Assembly (NCBI GenBank): GCA_001661245.1 | Contig: KV454015.1 | Span: 649,486-669,485 of the forward strand | Origin: Pachysolen tannophilus NRRL Y-2460 | Taxonomy: Eukaryota | DNA length: 20,000 nt | Direction of reading: 5' to 3' | In this document: positions 16,870-17,640 of the stretch, piece after piece | How the letters are laid out: the number at the start of each line of letters is the position of its first letter | Position numbering within the stretch: the first letter of the stretch is position 1 | Program-made: the position numbers and the translations under genes | Notes under the pieces: model-generated | What the model was told of the DNA's origin: nothing | Databases searched by the model: none | The model's input: the letters and a program-made list of their open reading frames with translations, nothing else

Positions 16870-17640
16870 ATGTATTTTCAAGCTTATTTTTTTTCCATTT
16901 TACTGGTAGTATATGTGATGCAAATTGTAACTGCTGATGATGGTGAATTTTTCCCAAAGTCTAGCGGTATGGTCACTGTTACTTTAGACCAGTATTTAAA
17001 CAATATTACAACAAAGTTTCCCCAAAGTACAGTGTACGTTAAAGATGAGAATATTCTTATTTCTCCAGTTTTTGAAATAGAAAAGGAAATGGAACCGGGC
17101 AAATTGGATTTTGACAAGATTCATACCAAGCGTTACGAAGTGAAAATTCACGGAGTTGAATCTATTAAGAATAAGAAAATCCCAATAACTACTTGCCATG
17201 ATAGTAGAAATGGGTTTGGTGGATATAAAAACGTTGCTGCATCTGTTGCTTTTAAAGGTGGAATGTCTGCTAGTGTCTCATTGAACATACCAGTGTATGA
17301 TTTCTTAACCGGTGGATTAGGTATAAAAATCAGTAACTCTATTAGTTCCACAGAGAGTATTACATGTGATGTAAAAGCTGGAGATGTTGGACAAATATTT
17401 ATTGAACCTTGGTCTGTTAAAGTTACACATAGTCATAGAATCTATAGTGAAAATAAATTGGCTCCTGGTAAAAAAACATATTTAACGGAATGGTCACCAA
17501 GACAACAAAGTGAATGGCCTGTCCAAATTTCACCTGCTCCATATTGCCATACAGGTGAAGAAAATGTCCAATGTGATCTTATTCCTCATACAATTCTTGA
17601 ACTTCCAACTGTTGAAATTATTGATGGTGAGGCCTTATAG
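16870..17640 (+). CDS. Secreted beta-rich orphan protein, 256 aa; candidate aerolysin/ETX-MTX2-like pore-forming protein
   Basis: Signal peptide MYFQAYFFSILLVVYVMQIVTA|DD, 4 Cys, and no other TM segment or GPI tail. Alternating Ser-rich/hydrophobic hairpin at residues 132-165. The ORF is credible; the function is inferred. Confidence 0.8.
   Translation: MYFQAYFFSILLVVYVMQIVTADDGEFFPKSSGMVTVTLDQYLNNITTKFPQSTVYVKDENILISPVFEIEKEMEPGKLDFDKIHTKRYEVKIHGVESIKNKKIPITTCHDSRNGFGGYKNVAASVAFKGGMSASVSLNIPVYDFLTGGLGIKISNSISSTESITCDVKAGDVGQIFIEPWSVKVTHSHRIYSENKLAPGKKTYLTEWSPRQQSEWPVQISPAPYCHTGEENVQCDLIPHTILELPTVEIIDGEAL

Follow-up and report, generated by a model that had tools for sequence, protein, structure and literature searches.

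A chromosomal gene of Pachysolen tannophilus encodes a candidate secreted aerolysin-like protein resembling killer toxin K62 in predicted architecture

Introduction

Does the yeast Pachysolen tannophilus encode a pore-forming toxin on one of its chromosomes? The question arises from a 20,000-nucleotide stretch of strain NRRL Y-2460 (GenBank assembly GCA_001661245.1, contig KV454015.1, positions 649,486 to 669,485 of the forward strand), hereafter the window, in which a complete, uninterrupted coding sequence at 16870..17640 (+; 256 codons and a TAG stop) specifies a candidate secreted aerolysin-like protein that we call P0001. The original prediction for this gene was of a secreted protein with an aerolysin-type insertion hairpin, a candidate pore former or killer toxin. 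Work on secretion, toxin processing and microbial competition uses yeast killer toxins as models; they are also candidate antifungals, and to our knowledge none with an aerolysin mechanism was known before late 2025.

The precedent is K62, a 272-aa killer toxin of Saccharomyces paradoxus borne on the M62 double-stranded RNA (dsRNA) satellite (Creagh et al., mBio 2025, PMC12691639). Fold searches, a hairpin pattern that runs through the whole protein family and this precedent, as far as it is described in the parts of the literature drawn on here, all speak for the prediction. We consider it somewhat probable that P0001 is a secreted, K62-like protein of aerolysin fold that oligomerises on fungal cells after cleavage and inserts a hairpin at residues 126-166 as a beta-barrel.

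Results

Is the fold of P0001 that of an aerolysin? Structure prediction with AlphaFold 2 (AF2) from alignment A1, which holds P0001 and its 27 relatives in 28 rows, gave a mean predicted local distance difference test score (pLDDT) of 65 and a predicted template modelling score (pTM) of 0.48. Confidence is unevenly distributed, with blocks 81-120 and 161-240 at pLDDT 80-91 and residues 24-76, 128-156 and 246-256 below 50. The predicted aerolysin-type core domain occupies residues 85-245 (17122..17604, +), at pLDDT 80-91 outside its loop, and is built in the model from long, twisted strands at 85-100, 118-130, 156-168, 172-195, 202-217 and 225-228; the loop, 128-156, lies at pLDDT 30-44. In aerolysin-type monomers, too, an elongated sheet carries a middle loop that is floppy and amphipathic.

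Two kinds of fold search with this model ranked aerolysin-family pore formers first, in agreement with the fold originally proposed. In a Foldseek search of the PDB, the first 25 rows listed (ranks 1-28) are all aerolysin-type toxins, with aerolysin, epsilon toxin, parasporin-2, LSL, Cry23, Mpp75, BmALP and the Bacillus thuringiensis (Bt) 26-kDa protein in the top rows; just two matches have E ≤ 1e-3. TM-scores range from 0.08 to 0.23. When the top 986 chains were re-aligned, rows 1-39 were all aerolysin-class pore formers. In the targets, the matched model range (about 84-231) lands on the pore-forming modules (145-313 in lamprey LIP, 150-314 in LSL, and likewise in Dln1, BmALP, parasporin-2 and aerolysin), at 4-13% identity in the structural alignments. 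As leads, a language-model Atlas placed P0001 near ETX_MTX2, Aerolysin and Monalysin clusters (0.85-0.88) and near large Ascomycota clusters that have no Pfam family (0.95), the top named neighbour of the core alone being a Bacillota DUF6060 cluster (0.91).

Could the likeness instead be an artefact of a medium-confidence model rich in long strands, P0001 being an unrelated beta-rich secreted fungal protein of an effector-like or cell-wall kind? Class II viral fusion glycoproteins do appear in the Foldseek lists, and names among the Atlas neighbours include ‘Ecp2 effector’ and ‘Celp0028 effector like’. However, the aerolysin-type matches span the whole core (106-139 residues) and fall where the target proteins have their pore-forming modules, whereas the unrelated matches cover 45-94 residues. 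The two search methods concur on the fold, and the hairpin statistics described below come from sequence, independently of the model. We therefore regard an artefact as distinctly improbable. A Foldseek search of viral predicted structures (BFVD) gave no matches at E ≤ 1e-3, its weak rows being mostly viral glycoproteins and phage proteins.

An aerolysin-like fold is thus supported for P0001 at the level of a predicted structure. With the aerolysin/ETX-MTX2 superfamily (aerolysin, epsilon toxin, parasporin-2, LSL, Dln1, lamprey LIP, BmALP1, lysenin, CPE) the protein would share an elongated core of long twisted strands and a pre-stem hairpin, amphipathic and rich in Ser/Thr, lying between strands 2 and 3. 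It differs from these proteins in having neither detectable sequence similarity to them nor a recognisable receptor-binding lectin domain, and its activation would proceed by dibasic cleavage on the N-terminal side rather than by the loss of a peptide from the C-terminus.

The putative membrane-insertion (pre-stem) hairpin is an amphipathic, two-armed segment rich in Ser and Thr at residues 126-166 (17245..17367, +) that ends at Cys166. The part of it first singled out, residues 132-165, corresponds to nt 17263-17364 with every residue as listed. The peak period-2 hydrophobic moment of the whole protein, 2.54 over 11 residues, falls at 132-142. Sorted by parity, the residues of arm 126-142 fall into two faces, V F G M A V L I V and A K G S S S N P, and the faces of arm 144-166 alternate likewise. 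This alternation of hydrophobic and small polar residues, which had been proposed by inspection, exceeds chance: the mean moment of the Cys109-Cys166 segment was reached by none of 500 shuffles.

The amphipathic hairpin pattern is a family-wide feature. Between the first and second conserved cysteines, all 28 rows have 54-64 residues, are richer in Ser/Thr than elsewhere (17-41% versus 9-18%) and have a higher mean period-2 moment than the remaining protein. The moment of this segment was reached by at most 25 of 500 shuffles in 26 of the 28 rows, and the protein-wide top moment lies inside the segment in 18.

How closely does P0001 resemble K62? The facts on K62 used here come from parts of PMC12691639 and of a 2026 review (PMC13211469). 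The published model of K62 is that of an aerolysin-family protein: residues 31-112 form the N-terminal domain and 112-272 the core, and in the insertion loop (167-192) Ser/Thr alternate with hydrophobic residues; the toxin kills yeast, forms heat- and detergent-stable membrane oligomers of > 250 kDa and, in that account, has no self-encoded immunity (PMC12691639). A KR at residue 111 marks its domain boundary, and the protein is ~18.5 kDa when made in yeast versus ~28 kDa when made in Escherichia coli. Its predicted disulfides are C146-C271, C201-C262 and C227-C237 (PMC12691639, Table S6), and conservation of these cysteines among 1,000 homologues is 71% and 85%, 81% and 77%, and 45% and 39%, respectively. 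The K62-like proteins (K62Ls), a family defined by PSI-BLAST from K62, comprise > 1,000 mostly chromosomal homologues, 94% of them from Ascomycota, including S. cerevisiae YCL049C (KTA1) and proteins of Scheffersomyces stipitis, Debaryomyces, Millerozyma, Candida and Metschnikowia; plasmid-borne Bacillus K62-like genes are listed in Table S11 (PMC12691639).

The likenesses begin with size (256 versus 272 aa) and order of parts: a signal peptide, a poorly structured N-terminal part and an aerolysin core of ~160 aa, seen in the P0001 model as a helix at 2-20, a low-confidence stretch at 24-76, the core at 85-245 and a loop at 128-156. Four conserved cysteines are spaced 57/60/9 in P0001 and 55/61/9 in K62 (residues 146, 201, 262 and 271), those of P0001 (C109, C166, C226 and C235) being invariant or conserved in ≥ 90% of the 28 rows. 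The loop lies 19-47 residues past Cys109 in P0001 and 21-46 past the first conserved cysteine of K62. P0001, too, has a KR at its domain boundary (residues 87-88), and cleavage there would leave a core predicted at 18.4 kDa, versus the ~18.5 kDa observed for K62. Structural neighbours common to both are 2ZTB, 8U5F, 6LH8, 1W3A, 4ZNO, 3KOG and 2D42, with HA70 and HA3 also found for both under other entries. Both proteins come from budding yeasts, P0001, like K62, has no linked immunity gene, and Scheffersomyces holds K62-like genes as well as relatives of P0001, the other named relatives being from other budding yeasts. The differences, as far as K62 is described in these sources, are that the P0001 gene is chromosomal rather than on a dsRNA satellite, that P0001 lacks the third cysteine pair (C227-C237) and C269 of K62, and that its N-terminal part has 66 aa versus ~82. 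Because architecture, cysteine spacing, loop position, KR, core size and structural neighbours match, we file P0001 as a probable K62-like protein.

Several results weigh against this assignment and against the pore-forming reading that goes with it. The Pfam families Aerolysin (PF01117), ETX_MTX2 (PF03318) and BB_PF (PF18063) matched none of the 28 family members at E ≤ 10, so P0001 is not a member of them by sequence, a point on which the original prediction lacks support. The nearest Pfam entry is DUF6426 (PF19990), at E 0.022 and 14.7 bits against a gathering threshold of 25, that is, below the cut-off. AF2 run on the single sequence gave an unusable model (pLDDT 34.4). KR or RR stands at the boundary in 1 of the 27 relative rows that have sequence there. 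None of the species and accession strings searched for the named relatives occurs in four supplementary files of PMC12691639, which list ~55 representatives of the ~1,000 accessions, and in the parts of PMC12691639 and PMC13211469 drawn on here no chromosomal K62-like protein is reported as tested for antifungal activity. P0001 is probably a member of the K62-like (K62L/KTA) family by analogy of architecture.

The DUF6426 match was found in 1 of the 28 members and is partial, pairing P0001 residues 122-192 with profile positions 110-181 of 203. DUF6060 (PF19535) likewise gave a sub-threshold match, E 0.073, in one relative (1 of 28). The P0001 family thus bears a weak local resemblance to these two families over the hairpin and strand-3 region. 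PF19990 and PF19535 found no match in 14 control genomes, and we found no literature mention of DUF6426; that DUF6426 and DUF6060 correspond to K62-like proteins is a guess. No member of the family has a convincing match to any Pfam family, and neither P0001 nor the family profile matched PDB chain sequences at E ≤ 10.

P0001 had been called an orphan, which it is not. An exhaustive phmmer scan of 1.84 billion representatives at a threshold of E ≤ 1e-3 returned 28 proteins including P0001 itself, hence 27 relatives, and five proteins at E ≤ 1e-10; the best non-self match has E 3.9e-21 and 35% identity over residues 87-237. None of the 27 is 272 or 312 aa long. All relatives with names are from budding yeasts: P. 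tannophilus (three proteins), [Candida] anglica, Priceomyces carsonii, Hyphopichia burtonii, Scheffersomyces coipomensis, S. amazonensis and S. xylosifermentans. The P. tannophilus members are P0005, P0015 and P0013, one of them a 122-aa fragment, which indicates that the family duplicates and decays in some yeasts. Two UniRef names in the family, ‘Flo11 domain-containing protein’ and ‘H-type lectin domain-containing protein’ (P0005, P0007), have no Pfam backing and look like automatic mislabels.

Across A1, P105, C109, G118, C166 and C226 are invariant and G115, G117, G171, Q175, P222 and C235 are conserved in ≥ 90% of rows, while the N-terminal 60-150 residues vary. A quick maximum-likelihood tree of the 28 rows resolves two groups with a Shimodaira-Hasegawa-like approximate likelihood-ratio test (SH-aLRT) value of 98. 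The median terminal branch, 1.21 changes per site, marks the family as fast-evolving. Word-index homology searches were too insensitive for such a family and came back nearly empty: P0001 retrieved itself, A1 two matches, and the relative P0016 itself or one relative. In tblastn searches of plasmids with P0001, P0006, P0017 and P0019 there was no relevant match, P0019 giving chance matches at E 2-7.

Is P0001 built to be secreted and processed? A signal peptide is predicted at residues 1-22 (16870..16935, +), with hydrophobic core FFSILLVVYVMQIV and likely cleavage after V-T-A22 and before D-D; peptide and site were judged by eye. The AF2 model has a helix at residues 2-20 (pLDDT 86-88), and a similar hydrophobic N-terminus starts every full-length relative in A1, so that the signal peptide originally called stands. 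The single CTG codon of the gene, codon 12 (16903-16905), lies inside the hydrophobic core and would be translated as Ser, not Leu, in a host from a CTG-reassigned clade. The N-terminal part that follows, residues 23-88 (16936..17133, +), is acidic (pI 4.75), of 7.6 kDa and poorly conserved, varying in length and sequence among relatives; its residues 24-76 are those modelled at pLDDT < 50, and it holds one N-glycosylation sequon, N45 (NIT). It may be either a pro-region or a receptor-binding part.

The KR at residues 87-88 (17128..17133, +), a possible Kex2 site, is the sole KR/RR of the protein. Its position at the domain boundary, as in the published description of K62, agrees with the processing site first proposed; its conservation does not, and a dibasic pair of any kind within 14 residues of the boundary is present in 7 of the 27 relative rows with sequence there. 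Kex2 processing is the weakest step of the mechanism, because KR is absent from most near relatives.

P0001 has exactly the four cysteines reported for it, with codons at 17194..17196 (Cys109), 17365..17367 (Cys166), 17545..17547 (Cys226) and 17572..17574 (Cys235), all on the + strand; the first three are invariant in 28 of 28 rows and Cys235 is conserved in at least 90%. Cys109 and Cys166 do bracket the hairpin, as had been noted, but the K62 analogy favours Cys235 and Cys226 as their partners over a bond between the two. By analogy with the predicted pairs of K62, the disulfides of P0001 are probably Cys109-Cys235 and Cys166-Cys226.

What the data establish is the gene, its family, the motifs conserved there, the amphipathic pattern and a predicted fold; how P0001 is processed, pairs its disulfides, oligomerises, forms pores and acts on fungi, and its formal place in the K62 family, we infer as follows. 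The signal peptide would be cut off after Ala22, and in the Golgi Kex2 would probably cut behind Lys87-Arg88, taking off the acidic N-terminal part or at least nicking the chain, to give the 18.4-kDa core. Once secreted, the core would bind the surface of a competing fungal cell and assemble into a ring-shaped oligomer, from which the Ser/Thr-rich hairpin (~126-166) would swing out to form a transmembrane beta-barrel, killing by ion leakage. Two disulfides may stabilise the core and leave the hairpin free, if K62 is a guide, and self-protection may be genome-encoded or receptor-based, with no linked immunity gene. Homo-oligomer prediction with four copies of residues 85-245, run without an alignment, gave a score of 0.01 and a mark of 0.32, values that tell neither for nor against oligomerisation.

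Is the reading frame a functional gene at all? The frame might be open by chance or belong to a dead gene, and expression shows no positive sign, none of the 5 sequencing runs (2 studies) that contain the stretch being an RNA run. Such an explanation is highly improbable, however, for a frame of 256 open codons in DNA of 30% GC, with homologues to E 3.9e-21, with Cys, Gly, Pro and Gln residues that are invariant or ≥ 90% conserved, and with native codon usage. The gene has 34.5% GC (window 30%) and 22.7% GC at third codon positions (GC3), which fits the very low GC3 (16-25%) of all eight long open reading frames (ORFs) of the window, and its relative synonymous codon usage (RSCU) gives r 0.86, the other seven ORFs giving 0.84-0.95. 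A candidate TATA element, TATATATA, lies at 16782..16789 (+), ~80 nt 5' of the ATG, as read from the letters alone. An antisense ORF of 67 aa within the gene, 16996-17199 (-), is most likely a chance frame.

Against the eight long ORFs of the window, the P0001 gene shows no compositional trace of recent horizontal transfer. Neither tRNA genes nor LTR (long terminal repeat)-like direct repeats are present around it. An origin by mobile element or recent transfer was rejected, given the lack of a tRNA, flanks with just poly-A/T low-complexity repeats and the native composition. From native composition and codon usage and the missing mobile-element marks, we conclude that the gene is resident rather than recently transferred.

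This residency bears on a further question: might P0001 have an aerolysin-like fold and be no toxin? It could be a secreted or cell-wall protein, for example in carbohydrate binding, adhesion or development, that forms no lytic pores or acts on the cell's own envelope. Such a role would suit a gene with a stable place among housekeeping genes, native in its codon usage and free of mobile-element marks. S. cerevisiae KTA1/YCL049C is described in the consulted parts of PMC12691639 as uncharacterised, with no killer activity reported, and non-toxic proteins of aerolysin fold occur among the structural matches (2D42, named a ‘non-toxic crystal protein’, and LIP and BmALP, which are immune proteins). 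Set against this, no pattern is better conserved across the 28 fast-evolving relatives than the hairpin, which is needed for membrane insertion alone, and K62, of the same architecture, kills yeast and forms membrane oligomers (PMC12691639). We hold a non-toxin role to be unlikely, and the most credible of the alternatives to a pore-forming toxin.

On the 5' side of the P0001 gene lies the gene for a mitochondrial-type ribosomal protein S7, RSM7, whose identity as the neighbour is confirmed by a Pfam Ribosomal_S7 match at E 2.4e-31. On the 3' side of the P0001 gene an ORF of 612 aa (18062-19900, +), with 14% Asn and long acidic runs, had been named PSY4. The sole basis for that name is a sub-threshold match to PPP4R2 (E 0.027, 14.4 bits against a cut-off of 27.4), so the label is plausible and not demonstrated. 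P0001 is indeed low in Asn, at 3.9% compared with 14% in the downstream ORF; RSM7 is similar, at 4.5%. Short tandem repeats flank the gene at 16537-16567, 17713-17737 and 17831-17882, as had been remarked, and they carry no evident significance, being ordinary A/T or simple-unit low-complexity intergenic DNA. Elsewhere in the window, between PAN3 and a G-alpha gene, an ORF of 481 aa (8429-9874, +) has 14.7% Asn and no Pfam match at E ≤ 1.

Discussion

So, is P0001 new or already known in kind? Mostly it would extend the K62-like family published in November 2025, or it may possibly be a side branch. A bolder view is that P0001 and its 27 relatives form a separate, fast-evolving lineage of budding-yeast aerolysin-fold proteins, without a Pfam family and missed by the K62 PSI-BLAST survey. 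We advance this tentatively, as a prospect with less than even support. Were it true, non-Saccharomyces yeasts (Pachysolen, Scheffersomyces, Priceomyces, Hyphopichia and Candida anglica) would have on their chromosomes an arsenal of pore-forming killer toxins peculiar to them, in some cases multi-copy, with Kex2 cleavage on the N-terminal side as the activating step and with receptor- or cell-wall-based immunity.

The reading we prefer is that of a K62-like pore former. If P0001 is active as such, this class of toxin would be one that is kept stably and vertically in the genomes of distant budding yeasts, and not solely a dsRNA-borne oddity of Saccharomyces. The small (~18 kDa processed), easily expressed core of P0001 would then lend itself to work on the activation of an aerolysin-type pore from its N-terminal side, and P0001 would offer a system in which to ask what shields a producer that has no linked immunity gene.

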